Positions 19-63,419 are shown, numbered from the stretch's first letter. The stretch is DNA of 64,000 nt from Psammoneis japonica (GCA_008632985.1 QPGO01000136.1:62001-126000), one strand, 5' to 3'. Numbers and translations: made by a program. Notes: generated by a model not told the origin, from the sequence alone.

Positions 19-2325
19 ATGTGGTGTTCAAGAGCCTCATTGTCAAACAGCTTAAGGATCCGCCGAAAGGCTGCTTCACACGTTGGTGCTGTTTGCACTC
101 ACCCCGCCATCCGAGAGGCTTTACAACCAAGAACTTTTGTGGGGAGGCGAAGCCCGATAAACCAAGGACAACTTCGTGGTTTTACGAGTGGACAGCAAGT
201 CCTTACTAGAATACAAACAACTGGCTCCACTCATGATCCGCAAAATCAGCAAAAGAAGAGAAGTCGACGGAAAATGCCAACGTTGAAAAAACTGAACAGG
301 GTTTCTGATGTGCTCGGCATACACAAGTACAAAGAGACGAAAATGAGCCCTAAAAATATTTCACGTTGCTGGAGCCGTATTGCCACAATCGTATCTCGCA
401 ACGAGCAAGAGAGAGCAGAATTGCGACGAAGAAGTCGAGATGTCCAACTCTTACTGCAGCACACAATTCATGAAATCAAAGAATTTGGGGCCGACCCCCT
501 GTCGTTGTTGGTACACAGTCTCGCCAAAGTATCGATTAGATGCAGGTACAATATAGACAGAAAAGTATGGCGCGTTCTGGAACATAGAACGGTTGTTGTT
601 TTGGATGACGTTGACATGTCCCCGAGACGGATTTCCAACGTTGCTTGGGCATTTGCAAAGGTTCGGTATAGGTCGACGGCATTATTTGACAAAATTGCTC
701 AAGCATTAGTTCCGAAGATGAGCATGTTCAATCCACAAGACCTTTCCAATCTGGCTTTGGCATACGCAACTGCCGAACACTCAGCGCCACTACTCTTTGA
801 TGCAATAGCCGATGCATCTCTAGAACAGTTGGACAAATTCAATCCGCAGGACCTTTCAAACATTGCGTGGGCATTCGCAGCTGCCGGTCACACTTCTCCT
901 TTACTTTTTAACGCTATCGCCGACGCGTCGCGAGATCAGTTAGATGACTTTGCGCCACAGAATCTATCCATCATGGCGTGGGCGTTTGCCTCTGCCGGAC
1001 ATTCGGCGCCGACACTTTTCGGTGCCATTGCAGGCGCAGCACTGCCAGTGATACACAGCTTCAACCCGCAAGACCTTTCCAACATATTATGGGCATATGC
1101 AACCATCGGACAGCCGTCTCCTTTTCTCTTTGATGTCATTGCGAAAGCTGCGCTACCTCAATTGAATAGGTTCAACCCGCACAACCTAGCAAACATAGCA
1201 TGGGCATATGCAACCGTCGACCGCTCGGCACCGTGGCTATTTAATGCCATTGCCGAGTCTGCACTCCCAAGGATAGACAGTTTTGATCCTCAGGCACTTG
1301 CTAAAATGGCATGGGCTTGCGCTACGGTCAAGCACTCGGCACCGCCACTCTTCGATGGCATAGCTGGCGTGGCAATATCTAGATTGGACCATTTCAGCCC
1401 TCATGCCCTTTCCAATATGGCATGGGCATATGCTACTGCTCGACATTCAGCCCCGTTGCTCTTTGACGAAATGACCAAGACAGCAAGAGCAAGATTGGAC
1501 AGTTTCACCCCCCAAAACCTATCAATCATGGCATGGTCGTATGCTGCCGCGGGACATTCTGCGCCCTTGCTCTTTGACGCCATGGCTGATGCAGCGGTAT
1601 CTCGTTTGGATAGCTTCAGCCCACAAGATCTCTCACACTTATTGTTGTCCTTTGCAAATGCCGGACACTTGGTTCCGTCACTTTTCGATGCCACCGGCCA
1701 TGTAGTACTCTCGAAATTGGACGATTTCAATGCCCAAGAACTTTGTGATGTTCTTTGGGCGTTTGCCGTTTGTGACCATCCCTGTGAAAGTCTAATGAAC
1801 GATAATGGATCAAGCTTTACCAAAGCATTCAATGCAAACGACGCATTCCTTTCTTTGGATGCCTTGATTCGACTGCACCAAGTTCACCTGTGGTGTCTCG
1901 AACATGGCAGTAGTTCGCTACAGCTTGATTTCGAGTTACAAAAGAGGTGTCTAGATGCTTTTGTGGAACAAAGAGAAAAGCCATCCGAGTTGCAAAAGGA
2001 TGTCATCAAGACGCTTTCAGACCTTGGACTCGATCCAATAGAAGACGTTCAAACAGGATTTGGCTATACTTTGGATGCAGTTGTCAGGTATCGCGATCAA
2101 GACGTTGCCATTGAAGTGGATGTACCCCACCGCTTTCTTTCCAATCATTCACCGACGGGGTCTACGATTCTGAGACATCGCCAGCTCTCGATGTTAGAAA
2201 ATTATCGACTCTTGTCGGTGCCCTATTGGGAATGGCATCAAGTCGCCATGGAGGACTCAACTTCTGGTTGTGAAAAGCGAAAAACCTACTTGACGGAGAG
2301 GCTGGATGGCGTGGTTGAAAGTTAG
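19..2325 (+). CDS. Heptatricopeptide-repeat (HPR/OPR-like) RNA-binding protein with C-terminal RAP domain, probably organellar
   Basis: About 10 tandem 37-aa repeats (FNPQDLSNIAWAFA...LFDAIA). C-terminal RAP-type motifs AIEVD.P..F, TGST.LRHRQL and LLSVPYWEW. Basic N-terminal extension. Confidence 0.88.
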   Translation: MWCSRASLSNSLRIRRKAASHVGAVCTHPAIREALQPRTFVGRRSPINQGQLRGFTSGQQVLTRIQTTGSTHDPQNQQKKRSRRKMPTLKKLNRVSDVLGIHKYKETKMSPKNISRCWSRIATIVSRNEQERAELRRRSRDVQLLLQHTIHEIKEFGADPLSLLVHSLAKVSIRCRYNIDRKVWRVLEHRTVVVLDDVDMSPRRISNVAWAFAKVRYRSTALFDKIAQALVPKMSMFNPQDLSNLALAYATAEHSAPLLFDAIADASLEQLDKFNPQDLSNIAWAFAAAGHTSPLLFNAIADASRDQLDDFAPQNLSIMAWAFASAGHSAPTLFGAIAGAALPVIHSFNPQDLSNILWAYATIGQPSPFLFDVIAKAALPQLNRFNPHNLANIAWAYATVDRSAPWLFNAIAESALPRIDSFDPQALAKMAWACATVKHSAPPLFDGIAGVAISRLDHFSPHALSNMAWAYATARHSAPLLFDEMTKTARARLDSFTPQNLSIMAWSYAAAGHSAPLLFDAMADAAVSRLDSFSPQDLSHLLLSFANAGHLVPSLFDATGHVVLSKLDDFNAQELCDVLWAFAVCDHPCESLMNDNGSSFTKAFNANDAFLSLDALIRLHQVHLWCLEHGSSSLQLDFELQKRCLDAFVEQREKPSELQKDVIKTLSDLGLDPIEDVQTGFGYTLDAVVRYRDQDVAIEVDVPHRFLSNHSPTGSTILRHRQLSMLENYRLLSVPYWEWHQVAMEDSTSGCEKRKTYLTERLDGVVES

Positions 2326-9285: not shown

Positions 9286-10140
9286 TCAGTGTTGTTTGAG
9301 TGGAACCTTGATGGTTCTCACGGTACAGTCGTCACTATCTCCACACTTTTGAGTGACACAGATCAGCAGGCAATCACCGACGCCAATCTCCCGTTCTGCC
9401 ACTGATTGATATGCGCGAATGACAATGTCGATGGCTTGTTCACACTTGCAATCCACAAAGGTCGGCACGACAAGAGGCAGCTTTCGCTTCACAAGTCCTA
9501 TATTGGATTCTTCTTTTTCTGTAGCAGTCGAGAAAAACATTCGATCCAAAATTGGTTGCAACAATTCTCGTCCCGTCCCCGACGTGGCCACGGCAACTTG
9601 TTCGTACGAACCAATAGCGTCGTATTGATACACCGCTCCTTGGCCTTCTTGAAGACCCGAAACAACGCAAAAACTGTAAAACGGAAAGGAACGCCGTCTG
9701 TACAGCGTTTGACTGAGCAGCGTGGCCACTTGAGCGCACGTCATGGTGGAGCCTTGATGATATGCAAAGGCAGAAGATTCGTGTTGAATGACTCTCTTTA
9801 GCGCTTCGCAATCGGCATTGCATCCGGACGATGCGATCCAAACTGGTAAAGACGATTTTTGTATTGTTGCTGTTTCAGAAGAAGAAGTATTCTCCAACAT
9901 GTTGGCAGTTGTTTGTTTTGCATGATTCGCGCACCACAAACGGCTAGATGTGTGTTGTCGGGTATAAATTTCGTATCCACCGTCCATGAGACGCGTGTCG
10001 GATGCGACGATGCAATAATCACGTCCCGCTACAGCCGACACGAGGCCACCATTCAACTGATAGGGTTCAAAGTCGCTCTTGCTAAACACTGTACGAGTGC
10101 ATGTAAATAGCAACAAGAAGAACAATAACGCTCTCATCAT
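9286..10140 (-). CDS. PSMB1: 20S proteasome subunit beta-6 (PSMB1/PRE7 family) with N-terminal signal peptide; likely the periplastid (symbiont-derived) form
   Basis: FEPY..NGG, ASDTRL, LY.RR.FPFY, YDAIGSYE and ERE.GVGD motifs. Preceded by hydrophobic MRALLFFLLLFTCTRTVFS. Confidence 0.85.
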   Translation of the reverse strand: MMRALLFFLLLFTCTRTVFSKSDFEPYQLNGGLVSAVAGRDYCIVASDTRLMDGGYEIYTRQHTSSRLWCANHAKQTTANMLENTSSSETATIQKSSLPVWIASSGCNADCEALKRVIQHESSAFAYHQGSTMTCAQVATLLSQTLYRRRSFPFYSFCVVSGLQEGQGAVYQYDAIGSYEQVAVATSGTGRELLQPILDRMFFSTATEKEESNIGLVKRKLPLVVPTFVDCKCEQAIDIVIRAYQSVAEREIGVGDCLLICVTQKCGDSDDCTVRTIKVPLKQH

Positions 10141-10194
10141 TACGTCTATTTGGTAAGAAGAAGTGTATTGTACTCGAGCTAGCTAGACGTTGAT

Positions 10195-10490
10195 GTGACA
10201 AGAGACAACAAACAACAAAACCAAGTGCACTGCCGCGGTGGGAGGTGGGCGACAGACGGACCATGATGCGCGTGTTTTAATAGTGATTCGTGATTCGGCA
10301 CATGTGTTTCAAACGACCCAAAGACGCACGAACCATTGCCACAGCACACGCACTCAGCATCCTTGCAACAAGCAACAGCACAATTGCAACACTCACACAC
10401 TTCATCCCTGCTGTTTTGCTGTTGGCACACCATGCAAATGAATCCCTTTTCACCTGTGTGCGCAACTCTTTGGTGTGTGCAGCAAGAAGG
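10195..10490 (+). pseudogene. Degenerate copy of the TMEM19 upstream region and first codons
   Basis: gtgattcggcacatgtgtttcaaa matches 21052 gtgattcggcatatgtgcttcaaa. MNPFSPVC here versus MDPFSPTC in the intact gene. Confidence 0.65.
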
Positions 10491-10759
10491 TCCTGGAGCA
10501 AAACAGCAGAGAGCCGAGAGAGGGGCGAGGAGGAGGAACGCAACCAGCCCCAGCAGGGCACAAAAGTCAGGGCCCTCATGCCCTGTCTCAGAGAAATGAC
10601 GCTTGGCAACCACAATCTGTGCCTGGGAAGAACCAATGTGATTTTTTCAAAGTTTTGTTTTTGACCAAATCAAAATGTTGTTTTTTCAAATTGTTGTCAT
10701 GGCGCTGCTCTCACTCTCATCCATGGTGCTCAAGCCAACAACAACCTGTCTGATTTGAT

Positions 10760-12590
10760 GATTTCCCCCCAGTGGCAGTGACCTGGACAACTTTGTCATG
10801 CCCTCCTTCCATCCACCATGTTGTTTTTGCCACGCTGAATGTTGCCATTCATGCCAAATGCAACCAAGAGTGTGGCTCACTTTTCCAAAAGGTGCCTCAA
10901 CACATGGAACAATTTGTCCAAAAGCTTCAATTCCAGTGCTGCATTCCACAGAATCCAGTTGCTGATTTCCACATTTTCAGAGTGCTCCTCATCTGTGAAA
11001 GCCATTTCCCCACATCTTCCAGAGCAGCAGCTCCCCTTTTGCAGGAGTCAACAAGTGCCAGAAAGGCTTGGGCCATTCATTGGCCTTGCAGCCATTTGGC
11101 AGTCACAGCTGCATTTTTGCCTTCCTCCTTTGACAGATTTCCAGCAAAGTCTTTGCCCCACATGCAGCAGTCTTGTCCCCCCCCCCCCCCCCAAAAAAAA
11201 GAGCCACTCTGATGCAGCCACACACCAAGCTCATCAAGAAGAAGTCACTGCCCATGTTCATTTGGAGAGCCCCGCGCAAATGGAGAGTGCTGTGCAGCTG
11301 AGGCAGCACATGCAAAGTCTGTTTAAATTTCATTGTCTTTTCTTTGTTCAATCTGGAGTGTCTGTGGAGGGCACGCCCAGTTGTGCCACACTTGATGACT
11401 GACATTGTGCAGTTTTGACAGAGACGCGTTCCAGCCCTAGGTGGGACTCCTTGTGACATTGGGCCCGTAGAATTCTACGTGCGAGCTCCGTAGTACGAGA
11501 ATTTAATTAATGGATATATTTATCTTCAACATCAAATAAACGGCCAAGTTTGTGGTACAATTATGCCTCTTACCACTCGACGTTTTTGCAACTTCGCCTG
11601 CCCTACGCGATTCTTAAGACATTGTAGAATCGCGCTGTAACAAAAAATGTCAAAAGTTGTTGGACGGATCGCTCAATAAGTGTACCGTAAAATGACACAA
11701 AATATCGAAAAAATCACGTAGAAATCTACGTGCGCGACATACGACGAGACTCAAAAAACTATCGATGTCACAGTTCAGTAGCACGAGGTCCCACCTAGAC
11801 CTGGAACGCGTCCAGAATCTTTTCATTCATCAACACCTCTCCAGCAAGTGCCAAGGCATTCATGGCAAATCCATCTGTTGTCTGTGAGACCATGATCTTC
11901 TCTTGGTTGGTCTTCACATGAAATCAAACATCAACACAATGGCTGTGGTCAATGTGCTCCAGCTTTGGAAACACAGCTTTCATCTCTTGCATCATGCTGC
12001 TCAAATCACATTTGTTTTCCATGAGAATGGCTGCACTGTTGATGCAACCCTGCAAATGCAGTGCCACAGTTGCACTGGCACTGCCCAACAATGGCAGCTT
12101 GCAAAGACTTTGACACACCAGCCAGCACATCATGGGTGGATTTGCTCTCTCCCGAACACTTCCACAGTTGGAATGTCTGGGATGGACCCGCATTTTTCTG
12201 CCCATCATCATGGTGCCAACAACTTGCTGCCAAGAGGGGAAGATGTGCCACTTGGATGAGTGTGCTTCCTCCCAATCCTGCAAAAGTGGTCTCACAATGA
12301 TGGAAAAGGCCATCTGCAGAGAAGTGTTGTTCCATCCACCACTGGCTCCTGTCATTTCTGTGCTGGTTGCAGATGCAAGTGGCAGATTTTGTGGATTTGA
12401 GCAACAGTTGCTCATGCTCAACTCCTGATGAGTGTGATCCAGAAATGTGCCACCTCCTGGGCCATTTGGCAATGAGGATCTGCTCCACCAGCAAACAAAA
12501 GATCGCCACTCATCAATCTGGGGCTTTGTCCCACTCATGAAAAAATTTGCAAGTGTGGTTTCATGATGAGGCAGCATGGCCCCACCCTTC
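10760..12590 (-). pseudogene. Hypermutated duplicate of the HET-like gene at 18757-20809
   Basis: Colinear with ~18940-20470, for example ctgcattccacagaatcca, gagtgtgcttcctcccaatcctgcaaaagtg and ctgatgagtgtgatccagaaatgtg. TA and CG are replaced by TG/CA. Confidence 0.9.
11423..11812. mobile_element. 390-bp MITE with ~25-bp TIRs and a 4-bp TSD (CAGA)
   Basis: Left end GACGCGTTCCAGccCTAGGTGGGAC and right end GTCCCACCTAGacCTGGAACGCGTC. CAGA lies at 11419-11422 and 11813-11816. The flanks rejoin to match the uninterrupted paralog at ~19680-19710. Confidence 0.9.
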
Positions 12591-13719
12591 TGTTTTCCTG
12601 CGGAACATCTTTTTTTGCTGGCAGCAATCCCAATGTTTGTGCACATGCACACAAATGAATGTGGTCCACAGCAATTGATGCAAATGCATTGTGCATTGAT
12701 TTGCATGCAACACATGAACAATTTGCACACACTGTGTCTGACAACCTTGAGAGGATGAAGGGCTCCTCATGTGCACTCACACATGCCTTCAAACATGAGT
12801 GTTTGACTTGCAAAATTTTGCATGGCTTGTGGAAACACAATGACAGTGGTGGCCATGAACACAATGTGCACCATCAACAGCCACAAAATTGCCACAACAC
12901 TGATGTGTTTTGATCGCACGCAATTTGCATCACGTGTGCATGTCTTTGCTGTGCATTGTGAAATCATTTGATCACAGAAAAAAAGCCAAAAAAAACACTC
13001 ACTTCTTTGCCCATTGCTTCTTAACCTCAAAAGTCAACAACTGGCCCATCACACTCTCACATGTTGACTCTCCCATGTGTCACACAGCTCTCAAGATGCA
13101 AGGTGCTGTTGGTTGTTGTGGCTCTTGAGTTGCTGATGCTGTCAAGAAAGCAGTGACCACAGAGTCACTGCAGTGTTGCTGACATGGTTCAGTGGCTTCC
13201 ATCTGCAGCATTTCTGCAGCGAGGTTGTGCTGAAGAAGCTGTGTCGTGCTTGTTGATTTGGCAAGTGCTGTGTCGCTTTGCTTGTCACAGCAGCATGCCC
13301 GCCATTCTCAGTGGTGGGGTTGGCAGCAAAAAAAAATTGTGGTTTGGCAAAAAATGTGAATGAGCTGAGTGTTGTTCTTTCTTCCCCATTCTTCAACTTG
13401 CCATCATTGTGTTGGACCCTCTCATTTGAGAAGCGGTCAAAATGGCCGCCCAGCTGCTCTCTGGAACACTGGCATTCTCTTGTCATCACAGCACCAATCA
13501 TCACCCCAAGAACCTTTTTTTCTGACGCAGAGTGCACCATCAAGCATGGTGTCAATGTTGCCATTGTGAAGGGCTCATCTTTCAGGAGCACACTGACAAG
13601 GTTGCTCAACTTGGCTCAGAGCCAGTCCATCTTGTGCTGCTGCCTGAGCTGTGCACATGTTGTTGATGCTCCCCTCTGTTTCTTCTCTTGTAAAAGTGAC
13701 AAACAGCAACTCTTGTGAC

Positions 13720-14210
13720 AACATTGAGCACATGAGATTAGAATGAGAACCTGATGCTGAGAAAAAAGGAAAATGAGAGAAGAATTTTTTATGCTGGAGA
13801 TCCGCAAGTTCAAAGTGCGTGGGGTGGCAGATGGACCAAATGACATCTGATTGTGGTTTGGCACATGTGCTTCAAAATGTCCAAAAGATGCTCTGTGTGC
13901 ATGAACAATCATGCATTAAGACAATTGGTTGATCTGTCCCTCAAGGTCCATGCCATCACCATCACAAGAACGCAACACCACAGGCTCTGGCAATGCAACC
14001 GCCTGCGCTGCCAACTGCCAATGCCCAATGCAAGACAAGACGCAATGCATGCTTTGCTGCTGTTTTGACTCTGCACACAATGGATCCCTTCTCACCAGCA
14101 TGTGTGGGATTGGGTGTGGCATGGGCCACCACCATGGTGCTGCATGGTGTCAAGCACAAATCCGTTTCCAACAGTGGCACGATTGCGGCCTGGATGGTGG
14201 GCTTTCTCAA
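13720..14210 (+). pseudogene. Hypermutated duplicate of the HET-TMEM19 intergenic region plus TMEM19 5' coding sequence (truncated)
   Basis: Matches ~20865-21380. MDPFSPACVGLGVAWATTMVLHGVKHKSVSNSGTIAAWMVGFL here versus MDPFSPTCIGLGVVCATTMVLRGVKRKSLSNSGAIAAWMVGFL in the intact gene. Confidence 0.92.
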
Positions 14211-14269
14211 CACTGCCACCAGATCTAGCACAGGTTGCAAGTGATGAAAGAGAAACTGAAAATTGGCAC

Positions 14270-15900
14270 AAACCAAGCCAACAAGGAGATCAAGATGGAT
14301 GAGATCATTCTTGACAATGGCTCCAGCAAAGATCAAGCTTGATCTGTCCATGAGTGCTGGAGCAGACCTGCTGCACAAAGATTGTGCCATGCCAGGATGG
14401 GGTGATGCAAAGCTTGCGTCAGAGAATGCTGCAGCAAGCATCCTCAATTTGAAGGATGTGAAGAGCAAGTGCTGCACTGCGTGCAACAACCAAGTGGTGG
14501 ATGAATTTTGACCGCTGGACAAGAAGTCTGGCAAGCACACCACAGTGTTTGCTTTTGCACTGAGCCAGCAATTCTTTGTGCCAGAGAACTCCTAGAAAAA
14601 GAGCTGCATGTGACCAACACACACATGTGGGTTTTCAAGACAATGGCCACATCACAAGAGGCATCAAAATGACTTTCATTTTGTGGGGAATGTGCAGAGA
14701 CAACCTGCATGATGCTGATTGGACTGCAGGAGTGGACAATGAAGAAACCAAAAACAAAAGTCACAACAAAAAAAGAACAAAAATGACCCAAAAGATCAAG
14801 ACTGCAAAGACAAGAAGACTCAGTTGAAAAGTGCAAAGAAGCAAACAAAGGTCCAGCCCCAATCACCAGCATGAGAACACTCAAATTGAGGACAAACATG
14901 AAAACAACAAAATGATGCAGAACAACTGGACAAGCACAGCAATGAATCAGAAGAAAAGAAGAAAAAATGGGCAGGTGAGAATCTGGAGGAACATGCACAA
15001 AAAGCACCTGAAAGAATGGCTGGAAGTGGCAAATCCTTCAGCACTGCAGGACACCTCCAGTTGAAAGAGAACAGAGAATGAGAGAAGAAAGTTCAACAAT
15101 CTGCAGCAGTGGAAGACACTGAAAAAAATGAGAATGAGCAGACAAGACTCAAGCACTGTCACCACTCACAAATGAATGCACACCCAATCCAGAGGATGAC
15201 ATTGAGTGCAATGCAGACACAACAACAGTGGTGGCACAATTCATGTGCAAGATTGCTGAACAACTTCAGTCAGGAAAGGGGGCTCATTTTGCAATGGAAA
15301 ACCAACAAGGAAATGGCAGGACAAGGACAATTCAGCCAGCCTGATGGCATCATCAGAAGGAGTGCCAATGATGGCCATTGTTGACACTGTGGAAGAGCAC
15401 CAACATGTGATGAGGTGCTGGAGCACCAAGCACATTCAGTCAGACCTTAATCCCAGAGCCCAAAAGGAGGGTGAAGACTGGATCATGATGAAGATTGCAG
15501 AGGAGGGCAGCTTGAACTCTGATGCATGTGCACAAAAAAGATCCCTGCAACCAGAGGCACACAGATGCCATGAACCACAGGTTCAGCCAGTCACAAGCCA
15601 CTGCTGCAGTGATTTGCACCTTCCTTGAGACATTTCCAGCCATGAGCAAAAGTGTGACATGCCACATGACACAATTAATCAGAGGTGACTGTGGGACCGC
15701 TGAGAAGAACACAAGAGATTCAATGAAATGACAGAGGCAGCAAAATTTAAATGCTGGCTCAACCATTCAATGGGCATGATGTCAGAGACAGTCTGGTGGC
15801 TTGACAGCATCAACCAGAGCAGGACCCTGATGGGAGATGACCCATTCCTCTGATGCAATGTCCCAGACTTGCACCAGCTGACACCATGTGGAGAAACCTG
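14270..15900 (+). mobile_element. Degenerate Ty1/copia (diatom CoDi-like) pol remnant: protease region and partial integrase
   Basis: IILDNGSS aspartic-protease motif. PGWG...AAASILNLKDVKSKCCTACNNQVVDEF resembles CoDi 'PG.G...AIANI..L.D....R.TYD....D.F' with Y/R->C changes. Later AEKNTR..K and MMSETVWWLDSI are integrase-like. No LTR recognised. Confidence 0.6.
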
Positions 15901-16992
15901 TGACGACTCAACCATTCCCAAAGAACATGCACAAAAAAAAACAAACCTGAATTTTAAGTGCTGTCACTCCTTTGCCAGCTGGGCCGGTGCCGGCTGACCC
16001 ACACTTCCAGCACACCATCAAGTGTGGCAAAAGAAAAAGAACATGTGCAGTGCAACAAGTGGAATGAAAGGCACCACTTGATGGGAAAAGTGCGTGCGAT
16101 GATCAGGGCATGAAGCCCTGATGTGTGCAAACATGTTTCTACCACCACGCCAATGCTGTCCATTCATGATGACCTGAAAGCACTGAATGAGATCAAGAGA
16201 CATGGAGTGGAGGCATGAAAAACCAAGGAATGTTGGCAAGCTGCTGGATGTCAACTGTGGAGCCACAGGCAGCTGTGTTGTCAATGGATTGGTGATGGCA
16301 GAAAGTGCCCAGAAAGTGGGGAAGTCACTGGATCAGCGGGCAACAAGCTGAAGTTGGCCCCAAATGAGAGTGCCATCAAGTGTGCCATCAAGTGTTTGTC
16401 AAGACCATGTTGATGGCTGGTTGTTGTCCTGCTTGTGGCATGGACACATTTGGGGTTTGTGGGCCTCTTGTGTGCATCAACCACAGCCACCTTCACAAAG
16501 ATGAGTGGTCCCATCACGGGCTCATTTGAGAGACTGATGGTGGCATTTGCAATGGGGAGAAGCTTGCATCTTTCTTCCACCATGATGCCAACAGGGAGAG
16601 TTGCCAGACCAGGTGGGCTTGTCAAAAGACAGAGTTCCTTGATTTGACTCTGGAGAAGATCAATGGTGGTTGGATCATGGACCTGATTGTTGGTCTGCGC
16701 ATTTGAGATCACAAGAGAGAGGGCTCATTGGCTGCACTTGTGTGGAGCATTTTGTGGAATGCACTCAAGACATTGCATGTTTGTTTGATGCCATGATCAG
16801 CTGCTCTGAGAAGGGACAGCATGCCAGCCTGCACATCTGTGATGCACAGGATGTTGATGTTGAAGCACAGGTGTTTCTGGCAACAAGAATGCAGTGGTTG
16901 TTCCTGAAGGAGAACCTTTCCCTGGTTGCCATTAATCTGGTGATGCCATTGATGCAAACAGCAGGAGTGTGTTGGAACACTTGGAACACAAG

Positions 16993-17706
16993 GATCAATG
17001 GGGTCAACAAGGGCCCACACCAGTTGACAAAAAGACATTTGACTTCTGACATGGCTTGCTTTGCAACTCATTGTTAGAAAAGTCACACCATCAAAATTCT
17101 CTCACCTTTGTTTTGTTCTTGCTCCTTGGAGTGAATCATTTGGTTTGCACAACTTGTCTTTCAGCATCAGCAGGCGCATGTCTTTTTTTTTATTTCACGA
17201 GCTCAAATTTGCACACAAGATTTTGGTCCACTTCAATCCCCATTGCATTGTGCTGGTCACAAGATTTTGTCCACTTCAATCCTCATTGTGTGATGTTGGT
17301 CACCGGCTCTTTCCTGGATGACATGAGAAGCAATTTTTGACAATGCTGGCCGGCACTCACCATCATCATCTCAAGAGTTGTTGGGCAGTGAGCAGGCTTT
17401 TGGTGGTGGTGCACACAAAACACACAACACATGGGAGCTTTCCAGTGCAAGAGCTGCAGCACTCACAGCCCTCATCTTTGCCACTCAGCTGTTGGTGCAC
17501 ACAGACAACAGGGTTGATCAATGGGATCAACAAGGACCCACATCAGCTGACAAAAAACATTTGACTTCTCTGATGTGGCTTGCTGCATGACTTGTTGTGC
17601 TGAGAAAAGCCACGCTGTTGTCATTCTCTCACTTGTGTTTTGTTCTCACTCTTTGGAGTGAGTCATTTGGTTTGCAGGATTTGTCTTTCATCATCAGCAG
17701 GTGCAC
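16993..17706 (+). repeat. Two diverged ~190-bp direct repeats (16993-17180 and 17516-17706)
   Basis: gatcaatggg.tcaacaagg.cccaca.cag.tgacaaaa..acatttgacttct ... ttggagtga.tcatttggtttgca occurs twice. Confidence 0.75.
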
Positions 17707-18756
17707 ATCACATCATCACTTTGGTGCCACAGGCAACCCACAGCCACTGCAGACTGCCAAGGCAAGTGTGACACGCAGCACAAGAAGCCCAAACTGACTC
17801 CTTTTTGGTGACATTGACTTGCTGGTTCAATGCTGTGCACATTTCTTGGCTCGGCATGCCCCCAGAGCAGGAGGGAGAGGTGCAGCCACACCAACAGTGA
17901 TGCACCAACAGAGCTTTTTTTGTCCTGCTGCATGAGGAAAAGATTGGCTTGCCCACACTTGCAACAAAAGAAACACATTCTGTGCCTGGCAGGAGCCAGC
18001 AAGACTTTTGTGCAGTTTTGATTGTTGGTCAAACACTCTGACACAACAGCATCAACAAATTGTGTGTTGATGCTTTTTTCCCAAGCAAATGCACATGTGT
18101 TGCACACAGTGAGAAACAAGGCTGAAGCAAAGCACAGCAGCAAACACAGCCAAAATTTTGTGTCTTTCAAACAGAGGAAAGCCATTGAGAACAGAGGATG
18201 ACAGGAAGAAAGAGGAAAGGGAAGGCAGGACATCTTAAAAACACATGGGACCAGGTGCATGCCAGCAGCAGCACCATGCTCTGTGTCTGTTGGCACCAGC
18301 GGCTCTCATTTTTAGGTTTTGTTTTGTGGAAAATGAGACCTTTTGTCGTCTGAGCTGAGCACTGCCACTGTTCTTGGCAAAATTGGGCAGTGGTGCCAAT
18401 GCACAGCACAATGCCATGCTCTAACATCTTGACAAGTCCAACAGTTGTGGCAGCTCTCTTGTCCAAGCATGTTGCTGAGAACTTGAGCAGGAGGCTGTGC
18501 ACCCCTTGAAAAGTGCATGGTTTCTCATGTGATGATCAGCCCTTGTGCTCAACATTCATTGGCACAACTGACACTTTCTGCACTGGAGAGAAATGCAAGG
18601 ATGCTCCACCATTCTCTCACAACATGAACACTGGTGCTGCTTCCATTCCCATTGTGGACCTGCTGCAATGTGATGATGACTGCTCTAATTTATTTCTGTG
18701 CATCAGGATCATCTCATGAGAGTCCAAGCTCTTCCAGCAACTTGTTCACTGTTTGT

Positions 18757-20809
18757 TCAGAAAGGAAACTGTCCTGAGTTCATCGATGATGTACACTGCA
18801 ATCGTTTCCCGCCAGGCATGACTTTTCGTGTTGGCCAAGTGTGACATTGCCTCAGTTCCCTGAGACCTTGTAATGCACGGTCCATGGCAGGCACAACATG
18901 ATTTGTCTTGGTGGAATGTTTGTCGCCTGTGACAGCAACCTGGACGACTTGAGCAACTCCATCATCGATTTGCCTGTGCCCTCCTTCCATCCAGAGCTTG
19001 GAGGCTGCAAGACGGAGCCTGTTCCAGATGTCCAAATCCACCGTCACGCTATTGCCTTTCAAACTTGCTAGCACCATGGAGAGCCACATATGAACGTCAT
19101 CATACATGCCAAACGCAACCAAGAGTCGCTCACCTTTCCGGAAGGTGTCCCAATACACGGAAAGATTTGTCCAAAAGCTCCCATTCTGACAAACTGCATT
19201 CCACAGAATCCAACTAATGACTTCTGCATTGTCAGAGTGTTTTTCGTCCGTGAAAGCCATTTCCATGTCCTCCAGAACATCAGCTCCCCTTTTGCGAGGG
19301 TCGACAAGCGCCACAAAGGCTTGTGCCATTCGTCGGCCTCGTAGCCATTCGGCAGTCGCAATTGCATTTTTGCCTTCCTCTTCCAACAGTTTTCCAGCAA
19401 AGTCTTGGTCCAACATGCAGCAGTCCTTCCCTCCCCAAAGAGCCACTCTGATACACACCAAGCTCGTCGAAAATAAGTTTTGTCCGTGTTCATCGAGAGA
19501 GTCCCATGAAGAGAGTGCTGCAACTGAGGAAGTACACGTAGAGTCTGTCGAAATCTCATCAATTCCTCTTCTGTTCGATCTGGCGGTGTCTGTGGAAGGC
19601 ACGCATAATCGTACCACAGCCAAATACGTTGACAAATTTTGTCGGCAATTTTCCGTCTCCATCCTAACAGTGCTTGCTGGCTAACATTATATGGTTTCGA
19701 TGGAATCTTTTCATCCATCAATACCTCTCCAGCAAGTGCCAAAATATTCATAGTCAATCTACCTGTCATTTTTGAGACCATAATCTTCTCTTGATTGGTC
19801 TTCAGATGGAATCGAACATCGATAATATGATCGACGCACTCCAGTTTCGGAAAGATAGCTTTCATCTCTCGCATCGCTTTATTCAAATCAAATTTGTTTT
19901 CCATGAGAACGATTGCACTATCGATGCAATCCTGCAACAGTTGCCACAAACAGGCATTCATACTAAGCCAATCTCCCGGTAATGCCGGTTGCATCGGTGC
20001 TGCCCAACGATGGCTTATAAACACTTTAACGCCATCACTGGCAGAATTGCTCCCGAACACTTCCGCAATTGGAATATCTGGGACGGTCCCATACTTTTTC
20101 GGTCCATCGTGGCGCCAACGAATCGCCACCGAAAGGGGAAGATACGTCACGCGGAGTGTGCTTCCTCCCAATCCTGCAAAAGTGAACTCGTGGTGGAAAA
20201 GGCGATCTGCGGAAGCATCGTCCGTCCATCATTAGCTGTCATTTCTACGTTGGTTGTAGATGCGAATGGCGGACTTTGTGGATTTGAATAAAAATCATCC
20301 ATGTTCAATTCCTGATGAGTGTGATCCAGAAATGTGACGGGACATTTCGCAACGAGGACGTGTTCCACCAGCAAATACAAAATCGCCGCTCGTCGATCTG
20401 GATCTTCACCGTACTCGCCGTACCATTCAAAAACTTCACGAAATATGGTTTCATAACGAGGCAAGGTAAAATTGCTTTCCTCTTCCTCAACGTCGCCTCC
20501 TTTGTCGTCTTCTCCACTTTTGTCGCGAACACCAGCTCGAAGAACAGTGGTACTGTTGCTATTCCTCCTCTCCTTAAATTTGTCGCTGTGTTGGATCCAT
20601 TCGTTTAAGAAATTGGTACAAATCGAAATCACCGTCCAATTCTCCGGAAGATCGGCATCATCATCACTACACCAATCATCATCATAAGAACCTTCTGTTT
20701 CTCTGATGCGGAAGATGTCATCAAACAAGGCGTCAACATCACCATCATGAAAGGCATCTTTCGGGAGTGTATTGACAAGATTGTTCAACTCGGTTCGGAG
20801 CCAATCCAT
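18757..20809 (-). CDS. HET-domain-like protein, split across ORFs by frameshift/intron
   Basis: Motifs FISHRW, WLWYDYACLPQ and YFRRAWCVSE in ORF 19068-20171. Acidic N-terminal ORF at 20147-20809. The C-terminal end is uncertain. Confidence 0.62.
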
Positions 20810-21251
20810 CGTATACTAAACTACGCATTATGATGACCGTTGTTCTGAGTCAAAGAGACAAACAATAACAACAATGAGAGCACGAGATCAGAATGAGAAA
20901 CTGATGATGTGCTGGGAAATAAAGGAGATGAAAGAAGAATCATACAGTTATGATCAGAATTTTGGAATTTTGTAATTTTGTAATTTTGTGCGTGGGAGAA
21001 TCCGTTTTTTTTTCCCAAGCGGTCGACAGACGATCCAAATGAAGTCTGATTGTGATTCGGCATATGTGCTTCAAAAGATCCAAAGAAACGCTATATTTAT
21101 CAATATTAATACATGAATATTGATAATTCGATATCGCACCTTGTGCTTCCAAAAAAAAAAAAAGAAAGGATACTTAGACTACTCTTATTATTAGTAAGAG
21201 TAAGACGCAACATATTTTTATCTCTGTTGCTGCTGTTCGACTCTGTACACA

Positions 21252-22133
21252 ATGGATCCCTTCTCACCAACATGTATAGGATTGGGTGTGGTGTGTGCCA
21301 CCACCATGGTGTTGCGTGGTGTCAAGCGCAAATCCCTTTCCAACAGCGGCGCGATTGCCGCCTGGATGGTGGGCTTTCTCATTGTGTCTTGTGGCTTGCG
21401 AGGATTTGTCTTGGTGGCTTTTTATTTGGTCGGAACCAAGGCTACCAAATACCACAAGCTTGAAAAACAAAAAATAGATGCGTCGGCCTTGGAAGGATCG
21501 ATACGAGACGCTCATCAAGTCTTGGCGAGTAGTATTTTGGCTGTCGCGTGCAGTCTGTTGCACGCGTGGTTGTGTGGTGAAGAAAAGCCAATCGATTTTG
21601 ATAAACACCCGGTAGCTTCGTCTTTGAGCTGTGCTGTACTGTCGCATCACGCCACTTGCTTGGCGGATACTCTGGCATCAGAAATGGGTATATTGTCAAA
21701 GCAGCAACCCGTATTGGTGACGAAGCCTTGGAAACACGTGCCGCCGGGAACCAACGGGGGTGTTACAGTCAGTGGTACTCTGTGGAGTGCGTTTGGCGGT
21801 GCACTCATGGCAATCTGTACCATATTTCTGGATTTTATATCTGGTTTGCATCCTTTGCAACCAACGCCCGTGATCCTGTTTGGTACGCTTTGTGGCCTGT
21901 TGGGCTCGCTGTTGGATTCCGTTATCGGTGCAACCTTGCAAGCGTCGTATTATGATCCTGATACGAAATTGGCGTACCAAGCCGAGGACATCAACCACAA
22001 GCTTCCGCTCTCTGCCAAGCACATTTCTGGAGTCAACGTTTTAACAAACGCACAAGTCAATCTCGTCAGTGTTGGCCTTACCATTGTCCTCAGCGGTTGG
22101 GTGCTTGGTCCATTTTTGTTTTCCTTCTTTTAG
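21252..22133 (+). CDS. TMEM19: TMEM19 / DUF92 integral membrane protein
   Basis: Multi-TM protein with R...QVLA, ADTLASEMG, VPPGTNGGVT..GT, GSLLDS.IGATLQ and LTN.QVN. Confidence 0.92.
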   Translation: MDPFSPTCIGLGVVCATTMVLRGVKRKSLSNSGAIAAWMVGFLIVSCGLRGFVLVAFYLVGTKATKYHKLEKQKIDASALEGSIRDAHQVLASSILAVACSLLHAWLCGEEKPIDFDKHPVASSLSCAVLSHHATCLADTLASEMGILSKQQPVLVTKPWKHVPPGTNGGVTVSGTLWSAFGGALMAICTIFLDFISGLHPLQPTPVILFGTLCGLLGSLLDSVIGATLQASYYDPDTKLAYQAEDINHKLPLSAKHISGVNVLTNAQVNLVSVGLTIVLSGWVLGPFLFSFF

Positions 22134-22662: not shown

Positions 22663-22841
22663 NNNNNNNNNNNNNNNNNNNNNNNNNNNNNNNNNNNNNN
22701 NNNNNNNNNNNNNNNNNNNNNNNNNNNNNNNNNNNNNNNNNNNNNNNNNNNNNNNNNNNNNNNNNNNNNNNNNNNNNNNNNNNNNNNNNNNNNNNNNNNN
22801 NNNNNNNNNNNNNNNNNNNNNNNNNNNNNNNNNNNNNNNNN
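22663..22841. other. Assembly gap (N run)
   Basis: Run of n characters. Confidence 0.99.
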
Positions 22842-24300
22842 NTTTTTCTTTCACACCCTAACTCAACATTTTGGAAGCATTGCAAATCACATCAGGAGCA
22901 GGGCATTTAGCAAGCAACAACTGTGTGCTCCTTGGAGCCAACTTGCCACACCTCTCAAAACAAGACTTTGCTTCCTCACCAGCATGTTTCAGCAGAAAAA
23001 ATGGGCTGGCTCTTTTCTGTGGCTTGCACGGCTCTGCTCCCAAAAACAGCTGCGCTGCTCTTTCTGGCTCTGTGCAGCCTCCAACAGCCTCCTTGTTAAA
23101 AAGGTTTTAACCCCTCTTTAACTCCTCATGAAAAAATGACAACCACTCACCCACAACTGCTGACCCCACCTTTTTTCTCCTCTCCACAAGGGCCCCTTTG
23201 TTTGAGACTCCGTTGTTCTGCCCCCTGCCCTGGAACCTCAAAGACCCTGACAGAGTTGATGCTCACCCTGCACTTGGCACAATCTGAGAAAAAGGCACCC
23301 AGTTGAAGTGGACAGCTGAGGTCACACTTTCCCACCTTGGCCACCACTTGACCAAAGCTTCTGGACAGACAGCAGGAGCATGTGGCCAGCAGCTCTTCCT
23401 CTGCAGCCTCCTGCTGCTCTTTCCTGGTTGTTGTCAGTGGCCCAACCAAGTGATGCAAACTTGGCAAATGCCAGCCATGCACTGCTGCATTTGCACAACC
23501 AACAGGCGGCCAGCTGCAGCTTCGAACCCCCAGAAATGAAAGCCACGCAACTTGCTCAAAACTGCCCCCCCAAGTCAGACCCTGGAAAATGCCATGACAA
23601 AAGCCCATTTGTTGGGTGTGACAGTCTCATCTGCAAGCCCCAGAAGCAAAGAAAAAAACAACATTTTGAAACATTGGCCACTGCGCTGTGCTGAAAACCT
23701 TGCTTGCCCCCCTGACTTTTTTGCCCCACCACCAGCAGCAGCAGTGCATGCCACAAAAAAGCAAGCATTTTGACACAGTCCTGTCAAGAGAAAAAAGGCC
23801 ATGTGTGACACACAGCTGGCAACTCCAGTTGAGCCGGCATCTCCGAGCACCCCCAAGTTCACAAACACAAAAGACAGACGTCACCTGCGTGAGAAAAGAT
23901 TTGCAGCCCATTGGATTTTCTTTAAATCCAACTTCCAAAACTGAAAAAATCTGCCACAACCCTTTGTCACATTGTCCTCAAAATGGTTCTGAATGTGCCT
24001 TTGCAAGCTGGGCCTTGCCTGGCCAGGCTCGAGGTCGCCACACTTTTCTTGCAGTCTCACCCAGCAGGCTGTCACTGCATGCTGCATGCCTTGTCATGTC
24101 ACCCTGACACATGCCCAATTCAAACTTTCCTTGGCCTTTCAGTTGACACTTTGAGAAATGACACTCTTTTCAGCACCGCTGCTCTTTTTCGATTCTGCCA
24201 AACCAGCGAAAAGAAAAGGTTTTAATCTGATGTTGCTGCGGTCACCTGTGACAAAAACAAATGCCAGCAATCATTCTGAATCTGAAAGCCTTGCATCAAA
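22842..24300. other. TpA/CpG-depleted hypermutated block 2
   Basis: Same dinucleotide signature. Surviving TAs are mostly TTAA/TTAG/CTAA. Origin not recognised. Confidence 0.8.
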
Positions 24301-34764: not shown

Positions 34765-36556
34765 TTAATCACTTCTTTCCATGTCCAAAAGGTCCATTGG
34801 TTGGTATGGCAGAGAAACATTCTCAGGCTTGACCAATATGTTCTTGTTTCCATCCTGCATCTTCACGGCATATCGTCCCTTCCCGCTGTTGTAATTCAGA
34901 ATAGTACCAACCTTGCCGTTCCAGTGAGTAGCGGAGGCCAAACCACGGACCAGAACTTCATCATCTGAGTCAAACACAACACACAGTTTGCAGTCCTCAT
35001 CATGTCCAAGCTCGCGGTGCTCGCGCTGGCATTGCAAACTACAATAAGATAAAGCCCTACATGCGTTGCACTTCATACCATTAGTGCCATCACAAGCATC
35101 ACGTGCGCCCATCATGGCACATTCTTCCTTTACCTCATCCAGCAAATCAAGATGATCTTGCCACTCTTTCTTTGTTCTGTCGCCACTACTGACAGCCTGT
35201 CGAGCCCAATAAGCGGCAAGAGGAATTGGGCTGTACGAAGGCATCGTGATGTAATCGTAGAGTTCATATCCACGGATTATTAATGCCTTTGACAACTGAC
35301 ACTGTGCGCGTTTGAATCCGTGCTTTGCTGCCTTGTCGAACCAGCAAATGGCGCCATGCGCAGGACATGTCGACTTGAGATTGCCTTGCACAATGTGTTC
35401 GCCGAGAATGCACTGGGCTTCGGTGTCACCTTGCGCCGCGGCGAGCGTGTAGTGCCGCAACGCTTTCTTTAAATCAACTGGTCCATAATTTCCAGAGGAG
35501 AACATGTTCCCGGCCATGAGTTGCCCAACACTGTCACCCCCTTCGGCAGCGAAGGACATGAACTCGCGCGCTTTCTCCGGACAAGGTGCCACGCCGTCAA
35601 ATGCGCCCACACACAGGGCTGCAAGATCCACAAAGGCACTGGGATCACCCTTGTCGGCTGCCCTGTGAAACCATTCCAGTGCTTTCTGGCTGTCTTGATC
35701 AACCTCTGTAGTTCCATTGAGGTGTTCGCGTGCAACGTGGACCATCGCCCAAGCCTTTCCATTTTCTGCAAAATCAAGCCAAGCTCAGTGAGGTTCAGGG
35801 TGGATGCTCATGAACCTCACACCCACTGGCTTTCTGCAAGCTGGGCAATTGCGAAAAGCAGAGTCTAACGAATGAGCAACCTTTGCTTTGCACTCAAGAC
35901 AGAGCCGTGCTCCACAGCAAACAGTCGTCCCTGACAAATGAGGTTTCTGTCGGGTCCACGAGCAGTTGCACCCAAAGGCATGAAATCGGAACAAAATGGA
36001 CATGACATGTTTTCATTGTCGAAATTGCGGTTGGATGCATAAAATTCATTTCGCCACTTCTGCGCCACCGTTTGAACTCGCAACTCCTCCGTTCCAACTC
36101 ATCCCTGAAGCCTCCGAGCAGTTTGCTTGCTCGCGCATCTCCGACAACATTGTCATTGCACTTCGCTCCGGATCTTACAATCTCCAGATGGCTCATTTCG
36201 GATTTAAGTCTTTCAATGGACTCTTTTGTTCTTGGCCAAGAAGGCCCCTCGATTCGTTTTCGCAGTCGTTCCATCGACTCATCAAGAGTCAAAAGCTCAT
36301 CCGCGCCAGACATGGAACGAGCCCCACTGCTGGCCCCACTTGAGTTCTGCCTCTGTCCACCACCATGTCTTCTCGTGTGTCCCTGGTCTCTCACACATGC
36401 TTTGCATCGTCCACGAAACCCCTTTTTCCACTGACTCGAGCTGCAATTTTCGCGATCGAGATTTGCGCTGCATTGAGAGCAACGTCTGGTGTTGCCAACG
36501 TTCCTGTCATTCTGACAAACAGCAGGCGGTTGCGCCTTGGCTTTTAGTGTCAGCAC
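34765..36556 (-). CDS. Sel1-repeat / MYND zinc-finger protein with N-terminal Cys-rich fingers (frameshifted)
   Basis: KALEWFHRAADKG, KALRHYTLAAAQG and WFDKAAKHG repeats. MYND motif C..C....YCS..CQ..H...GH...C. Upstream ORFs carry CxxC motifs. Confidence 0.72.
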
Positions 36557-36911
36557 TTCTACTGTACAAAAAGTCGGTTTTCAAATCACATGCAATTGTC
36601 GCACTTGTTGGACGTCATGGTCATGGTGCGTGCGGGGATGCGGAGCAAGACGCACGGTGGACTCGTTCGACTCAATCGCGAAGCACGTGACTTGTTCGCG
36701 CCATCAAATCTTTGAAAGTACACAGAAAGCGATAGTAAATCCTGTCTGTAGGGAGGACATCGTAGATGCTACACTGGTACTGCCTATGTACTATTTCACG
36801 TACGTAGCTTTTAGCAGAGCTCATCCTCCGCACTGCACTTGGCCACAGAAGACGACGTCACAAAACGCCTGATCTCGTGTCAAATTTTCGTTTCTGTTGC
36901 TATTGCGAACC

Positions 36912-39233: not shown

Positions 39234-39519
39234 GATCTTCTTCGCTTCTTTTCTGTTTTGGTCGTTTGTCAGCAGCAGAGTGTTTCTGATGCCATAAGTT
39301 GTGGAGTCACTGTTCAATGCGAGGAATGTAATGGCGGTGAGATCCATGCGATCGGCATTCGGCATCAACAACATTGGGATCATCCGCCCCCCGCCCCCCG
39401 CATTGCGGTAGGGCCCTAAATTCCAAAATCCAAAATGCGCCACCCGCCATGCATGAAGGCAGGGAGGGAAGGACAGACTGCCGGGGTGTGTGAACCGGCC
39501 GGCCGGATAGATCGATGCA

Positions 39520-45470: not shown

Positions 45471-45905
45471 CAAAAGACGATATGATCATCGTCAATCCAG
45501 GGTGAGTTCACCGATTTTTGTGATCGAGTGTTCTCTTTGTGACGTCACGCACTAGAAAATGTCGTAAAGTCCACACAGAAAACGGAGCACCAATTTGAAG
45601 CTGCCACTTTGTGGCCAAAATAAGCTTGCCATTTGGAGCACATCTAAGAAACGGTCACTCCAACGAGTAAAGTGAAGGGCTGTGGAAGGTGCTCCAAATG
45701 CCACAGCAGTTTTGATGTTGTGGTAACATCTTGAAACTTGCAGCTCTGTGTCATTAAGTAGGATTCCGTAAAATCTACGTGTCATGCATGAAAGTAAGGA
45801 ATTTAAAAAATATTCGAGGTCGATCGAGCTCCGAAATAATTAATTTTGATTTTAGTCGTACAAGTCGAAGCTAATGCCACTCGCGCGTAGAACTGAAACA
45901 CCGTG
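43097..45905 (+). repeat. Two tandem ~1.4-kb units (43097-44500, 44506-45905), each with its own CACGG.GTTTCAG...CTGAAACACCGTG inverted ends
   Basis: The units align along their whole length. Terminal inverted motifs ctgaaacaccg/cggtgtttcag and cgaagccaatgcc/ggcattggcttcg. Confidence 0.85.
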
Positions 45906-46019
45906 TTCGTTCTACCTCCCGTCAATTCGTCTGCTCTACCTCCTGTCAATTCGTCTGAATTGACGGTGACGTCATGAAGTTTCAGACATTATGGTGATGA
46001 CATCGTGGTGACGTCAGAC

Positions 46020-46186
46020 AGTTTCAACAACGACTGTTGAAACTCAAAGTTTCAACAACTTTTTGTTGAAACTTGGAACTTTCAACAAAAAATCTGTTGA
46101 AACTTTTTCGGAGTTGTTGAAACTTCCAAGTTTCAACAGTTTTTTTGTTGAAACTTCCAAGTTTCAACAGTTTTTTGTTGAAACTA
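46020..46186 (-). repeat. Array of GTTGAAAC/GTTTCAAC palindromic units (right, inverted relative to left)
   Basis: gttgaaacttccaagtttcaacagttttttgttgaaac is the reverse complement of the left-array units. Confidence 0.9.
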
Positions 46187-63150: not shown

Positions 63151-63419
63151 AATTCTTGGGTTGCAGAGGTGCGCACGCTGCAGGCCGTGATTGTGAATGT
63201 GCCCACAGATCTGATTGCACCAAATGAATGTGATGATGAAGAACAGATGGCAGCTGTCCGACGCACTGACAGAAAGGCGATGGAAGGATGCAGGCTGTGC
63301 TGGACTGGGGACTGAGTGAGACATGGGACTGTCTTCCAATGCCCTCCCTCGAGATGGAGCCAGTTGATTCACAATGATGTGAAAAAACTTGCAAGATCTT
63401 GCAAACCTTGGAAGAAAGT

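Follow-up and report, generated by a model that had tools for sequence, protein, structure and literature searches.

The closest described counterpart of the process considered here comes from the chlorarachniophyte Bigelowiella natans. In the available text of a preprint (Mettrop et al., bioRxiv 10.64898/2026.01.13.699255, version of April 2026), 15 mutation-accumulation lines of this alga were analysed by Illumina sequencing, and 231 of 302 nuclear point mutations mapped to two regions, one an integrated giant virus of 186 kb and the other a virophage of 25 kb. According to the same text, 230 of the 231 regional mutations were A→G or T→C, all at TpA, with a local rate of about 6e-7 (approximately 1000 times the background) and with activity in some lines only (bioRxiv 10.64898/2026.01.13.699255). 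The B. natans genome is further described there as containing 124 clusters of TpA-poor, CpA+TpG-rich windows, mostly with unannotated genes, and the authors propose an ADAT2-like DNA adenine deaminase with a role in defence. CpG, TTAA, trinucleotide context and diatoms were all absent from the available preprint text in a term search. Here, we describe a stretch of 64,000 nucleotides from the diatom Psammoneis japonica (GCA_008632985.1, QPGO01000136.1:62001-126000; hereafter the window, with positions counted from its first base), in which six tracts are nearly devoid of the dinucleotide TA. The favoured explanation, to which we assign a probability of roughly three in four, is a domain-restricted TpA→TpG/CpA mutational process in silenced, gene-poor islands of the diatom genome.

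Full-text literature searches returned only the B. natans preprint and no report of this footprint in diatoms. The original prediction for this DNA, which was made from the sequence alone, knew of no characterised pathway acting in this way; that statement is outdated, as the 2026 preprint reports the same TpA→TpG/CpA hypermutation. The window resembles B. natans in the A:T→G:C change at TpA giving TpG or CpA (none of 38 TA kept in a degraded paralog, with 34 now CA or TG, and 14 changes against 0 at a domain edge), in discrete regions with a large rate contrast (TA loss of 78% against a background of 1.7%) and in clustered TpA-poor, CpA+TpG-rich segments (61 of 252 against 0 of 1,834 in a control). 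The two differ in lineage, Rhizaria there and a diatom (stramenopile) here, and in their targets, which are an integrated giant virus and virophage there and host-gene duplicates, a host-family pseudogene and unrecognisable DNA here. They also differ in degree: the available preprint text gives a TpA Rho of 0.45 for the nucleocytoplasmic large DNA virus region, whereas the observed/expected ratio (O/E) of TA is 0.04-0.12 here. Beyond B. natans, the window adds a second, distant lineage, a saturated end state, non-viral host-derived targets, a flanking-base rule with TTAA spared, site-wise and strand-random kinetics, a rate relative to CpG decay and domain edges that ignore homology.

The window has a GC content of 47.5%, and over its whole length TA has an O/E of 0.41 and CA/TG one of about 1.38. 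It contains a single 180-N assembly gap at 22663-22842 and 63,820 non-N bases. The TA deficit is unevenly spread and is concentrated in the six tracts, which comprise 20,775 of the non-N bases (32.6%), with TA O/E values of 0.04-0.12 and CA/TG O/E values of 1.41-1.93:

10185-11420 (no strand): hypermutated block 1a; 3 TA in 1,236 bp; TA O/E 0.04, CG O/E 0.31, CA/TG O/E 1.75.
11815-18700 (no strand): hypermutated block 1b, the most saturated; 20 TA (8 in TTAA) in 6,886 bp; TA O/E 0.04, CG O/E 0.12, CA/TG O/E 1.93.
22860-24220 (no strand): hypermutated block 2; 5 TA (4 in TTAA) in 1,361 bp; TA O/E 0.06, CG O/E 0.20.
35486-36545 (-): tract depleted of TA only; 6 TA in 1,060 bp; TA O/E 0.10, CG O/E 0.80.
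39500-45480 (no strand): hypermutated block 3; 50 TA (14 in TTAA) in 5,981 bp; TA O/E 0.12, CG O/E 0.58.
59380-63630 (no strand): hypermutated block 4; 10 TA in 4,251 bp; TA O/E 0.04, CG O/E 0.38, CA/TG O/E 1.66.

The four blocks of the original prediction, put at about one third of the window, were recovered and are real; that listing overlooked the 1-kb tract at 35.5-36.5 kb and, within block 1, an island at 11421-11812 whose composition is normal. Its confinement of the changes to discrete domains likewise agrees with the six tracts, the edges of which were resolved to 100-200 bp. The left edge of block 1 is at most 100 bp from the end of a proteasome-subunit open reading frame (ORF; 9286-10182), and the end of the window comes shortly after block 4. 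Block 2 adjoins the assembly gap, and its true left edge is thus hidden.

The tracts contain 95 TA, whereas 815 are expected from the density in the remainder of the window (1,689 TA in 43,045 bp). The four longest TA-free runs are 1226, 1045, 1043 and 982 bp, and the probability of a 1226-bp run at normal TA density is about 1e-21. The TA depletion is real and far beyond chance. Strand-symmetric O/E values inside and outside the tracts are 0.07 and 0.57 for TA, 0.36 and 0.94 for CG, 1.72 and 1.22 for CA/TG, 1.27 and 0.99 for the GC dinucleotide, and 0.80 and 0.95 for AT, respectively, at nearly equal G+C contents (0.480 in the tracts and 0.475 elsewhere). For comparison with other DNA, we used a signature of TA O/E ≤0.15 plus CA/TG O/E ≥1.5 in overlapping 500-bp segments. 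The signature was found in 61 of the 252 segments of this stretch, in contiguous blocks, and in 0 of 1,834 segments from a control sample of 80 environmental loci (488,679 bp) encoding relatives of the TMEM19 gene of the window. CG depletion is strong at 10.2-18.7, 22.9-24.2, 41-42 and 59.4-61 kb and weak or absent at 35.5-36.5, 42.5-45.5 and 61.5-63.6 kb (CG O/E 0.5-1.1); in block 3 it is restricted to the core at 41-42 kb. The pattern is nested, with strong CG loss found only within TA-poor DNA.

The direction of change was read from a degraded and an intact copy of the same genomic segment, together with the gene and the insertion associated with them:

10846-14209 (+): degraded collinear copy of 19101-21381; six collinear blastn segments with 71-90% identity.
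19101-21381 (+): intact source paralog of normal composition; ORFs 18757-20815 (-) and the 5' end of TMEM19/DUF92.
21204-22133 (+): TMEM19/DUF92 gene; Pfam DUF92, E = 4.6e-68.
11421-11812 (no strand): insertion resembling a miniature inverted-repeat transposable element (MITE); 392 bp, 28 TA (O/E 0.93), 29 CG (O/E 1.52).

The degraded copy is rich in indels and spans an unnamed gene, a promoter and the first ~160 bp of TMEM19. None of the 38 TA of the intact paralog in gap-free alignment is kept in the degraded copy, where 19 read CA and 15 read TG; 4 of 77 aligned CG are kept, with 34 read as CA and 30 as TG. Changes toward TA in the degraded copy were found at two sites only. The examples cited originally for TMEM19 (tgTATAgg→tgTGTGgg, gCGtgg→gCAtgg and aagCGc→aagCAc), as well as cTAacatTAT→cTGacatTGT, are present in the alignment. 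The best relatives of TMEM19/DUF92 are diatom proteins with at most 62% identity, those of Cylindrotheca, Pseudictyota, Chaetoceros, Seminavis and Nitzschia among them. One relative was found for the unnamed gene at 19068-20228, which therefore provided no outgroup for polarising. The MITE-like element has terminal inverted repeats of ~25 nt (23 of 25 positions matching) with CAGA on both flanks, and it sits within the degraded paralog and is missing from the intact one. It either arrived after the main hypermutation episode or escapes hypermutation.

A second comparison was provided by a duplication that crosses the right edge of block 3:

43099-44502 and 44508-45907 (+): tandem duplication; copies 89.6% identical, with the right ~430 bp of copy 2 beyond the domain.

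The edge lies between ~45,440 and 45,480, inside copy 2, and the homologous part of copy 1 is converted. Over the 975 aligned bases for which both copies are within the domain, the differences comprise 74 transitions and 18 transversions. At 16 places here, two adjacent bases differ so that one copy reads CA and the other TG, which implies that each copy resolved the same ancestral TA (or CG) independently, and sites with TA in one copy and CA/TG in the other split 5 to 5. In the last 412 aligned bases, where copy 2 is outside the domain, 14 of the 18 TA of copy 2 are CA (7) or TG (7) in copy 1; four TA are common to both copies and there are 0 reverse cases. The one-way and 5:5 splits on either side of the domain edge (~45,480) differ with a Fisher p value of 0.006.

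The same 412 bp bear on rate. Copy 1 lost 78% of its TA, against seven differences (five transitions and two transversions) outside TA, CG and CA↔TG sites, or 1.7% for both lineages; 16 of 21 CG are unchanged in both copies, and four of the five CG changes are in the copy within the domain. TA decay is estimated at roughly 100 times the background per base, with a wide error from only seven background events, and at about seven times the rate of CG decay in the same DNA. With TA decaying faster than CG, the tracts depleted of TA only are the younger ones, and old tracts lack both dinucleotides. Two arrays (42617-42760 and 46034-46185) of a palindromic unit of ~30 bp, which occurs in both orientations, flank the 1.4-kb tandem duplication and may together constitute the termini of a ~3.5-kb element of the foldback type; with neither TA nor CG, the unit is uninformative on hypermutation.

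Protein comparisons were made for two coding regions:

61779-63224 (+): pseudogene of an uncharacterised P-loop (GSPGVGKS) family; 482-codon open frame in block 4.
34765-35784 and 35894-36580 (-): ORFs of a Sel1/MYND gene; Pfam Sel1 and zf-MYND, with Sel1 at 35401-35784.

The 482-codon frame is longer than the longest frame in all 500 first-order Markov simulations of the block (maximum 432, 95th percentile 289). It has 149 relatives at E ≤ 1e-3 in a library of 1.84 billion proteins, the best with 58% identity over 312 residues in one matched stretch. A weak AAA match in one of 10 relatives was the only Pfam result for these 10, and a profile search of the PDB gave no match. The Walker A consensus GSPGVGKS reads GSPAHCSS, and this copy is thus dead. 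The frame encodes 0 Tyr, 28 Cys and 18 His residues. At the eight columns in which at least half of the aligned relatives carry Tyr, no Tyr is kept (five Cys, one His, one Leu and one Asp), whereas other conserved columns are largely retained (Phe 13/15, Gly 12/14 and Ala 10/11). Relative to the closest homologue, nine Tyr are replaced by six Cys, two His and one Asp. These replacements match the codon changes predicted by TA loss, namely TAY→TGY (Cys) and TAY→CAY (His). Four further members of the 149 (P0158, P0162, P0172 and P0223) have 0-1 Tyr each and keep 0 of 11 conserved Tyr columns, with Cys or His at 9 of the 11 and Phe retained at 28 of 36. They were chosen for low Tyr content, so that their Tyr loss is circular but the identity of the replacements is not. 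These sequences hint that other loci or genomes carry the same footprint.

The TA-only tract at 35486-36545 covers just the 5' half of the Sel1/MYND gene; CG is normal there and the frames are open. The translation within the tract contains no Tyr, and all four Tyr that P0274, the single good relative (39% identity), has in this stretch are replaced (by D, H, N and C), whereas most Tyr are retained in the normal 3' half. On this weak evidence the gene may be alive or newly dead, and its 5' half could either have been hit very recently in a gene that is still live or have been patched by conversion from a mutated paralog.

Taken over the paralog (0/38 kept), the tandem pair (14 versus 0) and the conserved Tyr columns (0/8), the direction TA→CA/TG is supported by an intact paralog, a tandem duplicate and outgroup proteins, as the original prediction had it from the paralogs. 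Its argument that deamination of 5-methylcytosine (5mC) is unable to explain the TpA loss is borne out by the tract at 35486-36545, with a TA O/E of 0.10 at a CG O/E of 0.80. Decay of methylated CpG, as in vertebrates, plants and diatom transposable elements, resembles the process described here in being site-by-site, strand-symmetric and dependent on chromatin domains; the older parts of the blocks show CG→TG/CA, and 64 of the 77 CG in the paralog comparison are now CA or TG; it differs in that it cannot remove TpA, the loss of which is faster and is seen where the CpG O/E is still 0.8-1.1. Either one agent or two would fit the combined loss of TA and CG, and 5mC deamination is sufficient for CG. 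Surviving CG depends on context, with GCGC at 0.91 of its normal frequency and ACGA, ACGG and ACGT at about 0.23.

The substitution spectrum of the old paralog pair was folded onto A. A is read as G at 35 of 75 positions after T, 44 of 243 after A, 28 of 249 after G and 20 of 257 after C, which is the excess of A:T→G:C, largely specific to TpA, that was anticipated from the sequence. As each TA offers an A on both strands, the 47% per strand corresponds to nearly every TA being hit. C is read as T at 67 of 152 positions before G and at 15-18 per 151-255 before other bases. Outside TA and CG, the remaining transition/transversion ratio is as expected of ordinary divergence between old copies. 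There may be a weaker secondary activity at A before a pyrimidine. The rise of the GC dinucleotide (1.27) and the fall of AT (0.80) in the tracts may reflect a weaker A→G drift at A before a pyrimidine. Error-prone repair by polymerase eta at WA motifs was considered and rejected, since TA is erased here while the AA/TT O/E rises; the TA-over-AA bias of this polymerase is only few-fold.

Flanking bases were analysed as the frequency of NTAN tetranucleotides in the tracts relative to normal DNA. The ratio is 0 for ATAT and for ATAC/GTAT, 0.015 for GTAC, 0.02 for ATAG/CTAT, 0.06 for CTAG, 0.08 for CTAC/GTAG and for ATAA/TTAT, 0.16 for GTAA/TTAC, 0.36 for CTAA/TTAG and 0.86 for TTAA, which accounts for 32 of the 95 TA left in the tracts. 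Partial protection of TA comes from a 5' T or a 3' A, and almost full protection from both together (TTAA). A rule by which a 3' A blocks the edit fits the tetranucleotide survival and was rejected, since XTAA sites gave 15 XCAA and 6 XTGA products and not CA only; with this split no single-flank rule suffices.

A dedicated A:T→G:C mutator at TpA, as proposed originally, is the best reading of these polarised, TpA-specific and domain-confined changes. In the favoured explanation, a process confined to silent domains would convert TpA to TpG or CpA, an A:T→G:C transition on either strand. The comparisons show the direction and TpA specificity of the change, its restriction to domains with fairly sharp edges at gene borders and the independent conversion of each site. 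CpG→TpG/CpA decay proceeds more slowly in the same domains, with deamination of 5mC, a base known from silenced diatom DNA, as its simplest probable cause. An enzyme probably drives the TpA process, which would be of one kind with the de novo hypermutation of B. natans. The most likely chemistry would be the conversion of adenine to hypoxanthine in DNA by a deaminase of the TadA/ADAT type with a preference for a 5' T, after which hypoxanthine would be copied as G. The target would be picked by chromatin state and not by sequence homology, and the outcome would be irreversible inactivation of the domain content, for example through the change of Tyr codons to Cys or His codons. A DNA adenine deaminase is our favoured guess for the enzyme, by analogy. 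TadA/ADAT, ADAR and TadA-derived base editors share the conversion of A to I, read as G, and a preference for U/T 5' of the edited A. TadA/ADAT and ADAR differ in that their natural substrates are RNA, and no such enzyme is tied to these tracts. To our knowledge, near-total TpA specificity with TTAA spared is undescribed for TadA/ADAT or ADAR enzymes. A defence role is something that we infer and not a result.

Several observations weigh against the favoured explanation or parts of it. A Pfam search of the 64-kb window found no deaminase among its genes, and the footprint is symmetric, so that it fits a change on A as well as one on T. Outside TA and CG, the old paralog pair has 143 transitions against 65 transversions, and A before C/T changed 2-3 times more often than A before A/G; either TpA is not the exclusive target or the pair also contains ordinary divergence. 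The 15:6 split of CA and TG products at XTAA contradicts a simple block by the 3' A. The absence of the signature from all 1,834 control segments concerns environmental diatom-like DNA in a gene-rich sample. The targets, as judged by Pfam on 162 ORFs from the blocks and by viral contigs, are not viral, unlike those of B. natans.

The symmetry of the footprint leaves room for the same real process with thymine chemistry, in which the T of TpA in silent chromatin would be oxidised or modified in another way, for instance to 5-hydroxymethyluracil (5hmU) or 5-formyluracil by an enzyme of the TET/JBP type, mispair with G and change to C. 5-Formyluracil does mispair with G, and 5hmU occurs in dinoflagellates. 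A rule centred on T (R-T-A strongly and T-T-A weakly preferred) fits as well as an A-centred rule, and the same domains lose CpG, the other 5-methylpyrimidine-purine step. We nevertheless regard this chemistry as unlikely, as such a modification in diatoms was seen neither here nor in the cited papers, and in the available preprint text the B. natans authors favour adenine deamination (bioRxiv 10.64898/2026.01.13.699255).

Homology-triggered mutation, in which duplicated DNA is recognised and mutated as in fungal repeat-induced point mutation (RIP), was weighed against the distribution of the tracts. Two blocks do hold duplications (the 10.8-14.2 kb copy of 19.1-21.4 kb and the tandem pair at 43.1-45.9 kb), and, in the available text of a paper (PMC9998398), many diatoms, although not Phaeodactylum tricornutum, encode DNMT4 enzymes related to fungal RID, which is a lead only. 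The partner at 19.1-21.4 kb is, however, untouched and of normal composition, and the last ~430 bp of tandem copy 2 are spared although the copy 1 homolog is mutated. Most of the block DNA is without a partner within the window by blastn and tblastx self-comparison, including most of block 1 (14.2-18.7 kb), block 2 and block 4, and tblastx of the window against itself gave no further paralogs. The order of CA and TG is random in the blocks (runs test z of -1.69, -1.47 and +0.56, compared with -0.33 to -2.96 in normal DNA), and the two products are balanced without strand bias. This random order argues against strand-coordinated tracts such as those from processive single-strand deaminases or RIP. 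The footprint resembles that of CpG decay, with numerous events that each affect a single site independently.

Like the process described here, RIP is a hypermutation by transitions that cannot be undone; it knocks out silent or redundant DNA and is recognisable by a dinucleotide footprint. RIP makes TpA from CpA (C→T), whereas TpA is destroyed here (A→G or T→C); RIP lowers GC, whereas the values here are 0.480 and 0.475; and RIP is homology-dependent with both copies hit, whereas within the window partners have stayed intact and tract edges fall without regard to repeat ends. Domains, and not homology, set the limits of the process. The intact partner, the edge at ~45.48 kb that cuts the tandem copy and the unaffected MITE-like element argue against a RIP-like mechanism, and the term 'repeat-associated' used originally does not hold in the RIP sense. 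A homology trigger therefore appears improbable. AID/APOBEC enzymes are likewise comparable in their deaminase-driven mutation of unwanted DNA and their dinucleotide preference, and they differ in producing C→T in strand-coordinated clusters on single-stranded DNA, as opposed to A:T→G:C without strand runs.

An artefact, in which modified bases at TpA and CpG were miscalled and the consensus took CA or TG at random, would also give strand-random products and sharp domain edges. We consider it very improbable. The blocks contain real decay as well (indels, transversions and the degenerate Walker A motif), and the base calls otherwise look clean, with the 482-codon frame aligning over 312 residues and the tandem copies differing by few indels. 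TA and CG are normal in the embedded MITE-like element. The 180-N gap is sized, which points to scaffolding with short reads or clones, data that would be blind to modifications, and the four low-Tyr family members in public data have C/H at 9 of 11 conserved Tyr columns. In the available preprint text, the same type of mutation arises de novo in Illumina-sequenced B. natans lines (bioRxiv 10.64898/2026.01.13.699255).

The content of the blocks was analysed in 162 stop-to-stop ORFs of at least 70 residues. The only genuine Pfam match was Sel1 (35401-35784), with seven weak others below the curated cut-offs; among the latter, Baculo_IE-1 (19.9 bits, cut-off 33.1), the single one named after a virus, is not credible, and none is a transposable element (TE) family. 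The scan gave no TE or viral Pfam family and no reverse-transcriptase remnant in these ORFs, and of 15 pattern matches to the P-loop family in a collection of viral contigs 0 were confirmed. Recognisable content comprises host-gene duplicates and one pseudogene, and much of the blocks is unrecognisable. The duplicated genes of the original prediction thus stand, whereas its TE remnants are unproven. That the tracts are foreign or viral DNA intrinsically poor in TA and CG, or DNA under selection against TA, and were not mutated in place, has almost nothing to recommend it: the hypermutable B. natans regions are integrated viruses in the available preprint text (bioRxiv 10.64898/2026.01.13.699255), but the blocks show no viral or TE domain and the polarised comparisons contradict it, as host paralogs and outgroup proteins show that these sequences once had TA. 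RNA-level A-to-I hyper-editing fixed through retro-copies is equally hard to credit, since, although ADAR-type enzymes prefer a 5' U as stated in the available preprint text (bioRxiv 10.64898/2026.01.13.699255), the two strands are affected to the same extent, the degraded copy is a collinear genomic segment with two genes in genomic order and a promoter, the tracts end at chromatin-like borders and not at transcript ends, and the blocks contain no reverse-transcriptase remnants.

A wider proposal is tentative, and we would put it a little below even odds: that diatoms and chlorarachniophytes share a dedicated system which reads chromatin state and enzymatically removes TpA, TTAA excepted, from silenced DNA, be it foreign or a redundant host copy, that this system is a RIP-like defence whose polarity is reversed, which needs no homology and which edits adenine (or thymine) in DNA, and that the saturated islands of the window are its fossil record. 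In the available text of a mutation-accumulation study of P. tricornutum, a GC→AT bias and no such hotspot are described (PMC6604790). Were the favoured explanation true, a second major algal lineage would possess a mutator aimed at A:T pairs at TpA in silent domains, one of very few natural processes driving A:T→G:C in DNA. It would shape diatom genomes through the rapid, irreversible killing of duplicates and through Tyr-free pseudogenes, bias substitution models and TE dating, and provide a simple genome-wide marker of long-silenced chromatin. Comparison of genomes with the footprint (this diatom and B. natans) and genomes without a reported footprint would offer a route to the enzyme, and a natural DNA adenine editor with a tight preference for TA but not TTAA would be relevant to the base-editing field.

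Between the tracts, Pfam identified ordinary genes, among them those for a FAST/RAP protein, a GDSL lipase, a proteasome subunit, an M64-like peptidase, eIF2A and a metallophosphoesterase. The FAST/RAP-domain gene at 619-1800 (+) contains a long internal array of ~111-bp (37-residue) repeats with 35-52% protein identity in self-comparison. An 846-codon frame at 46618-49158 (-) has no Pfam match and is packed with tandem repeats of 18, 27, 54 and 180 bp; CG is mildly low in this frame (O/E 0.5-0.6) and TA is normal.

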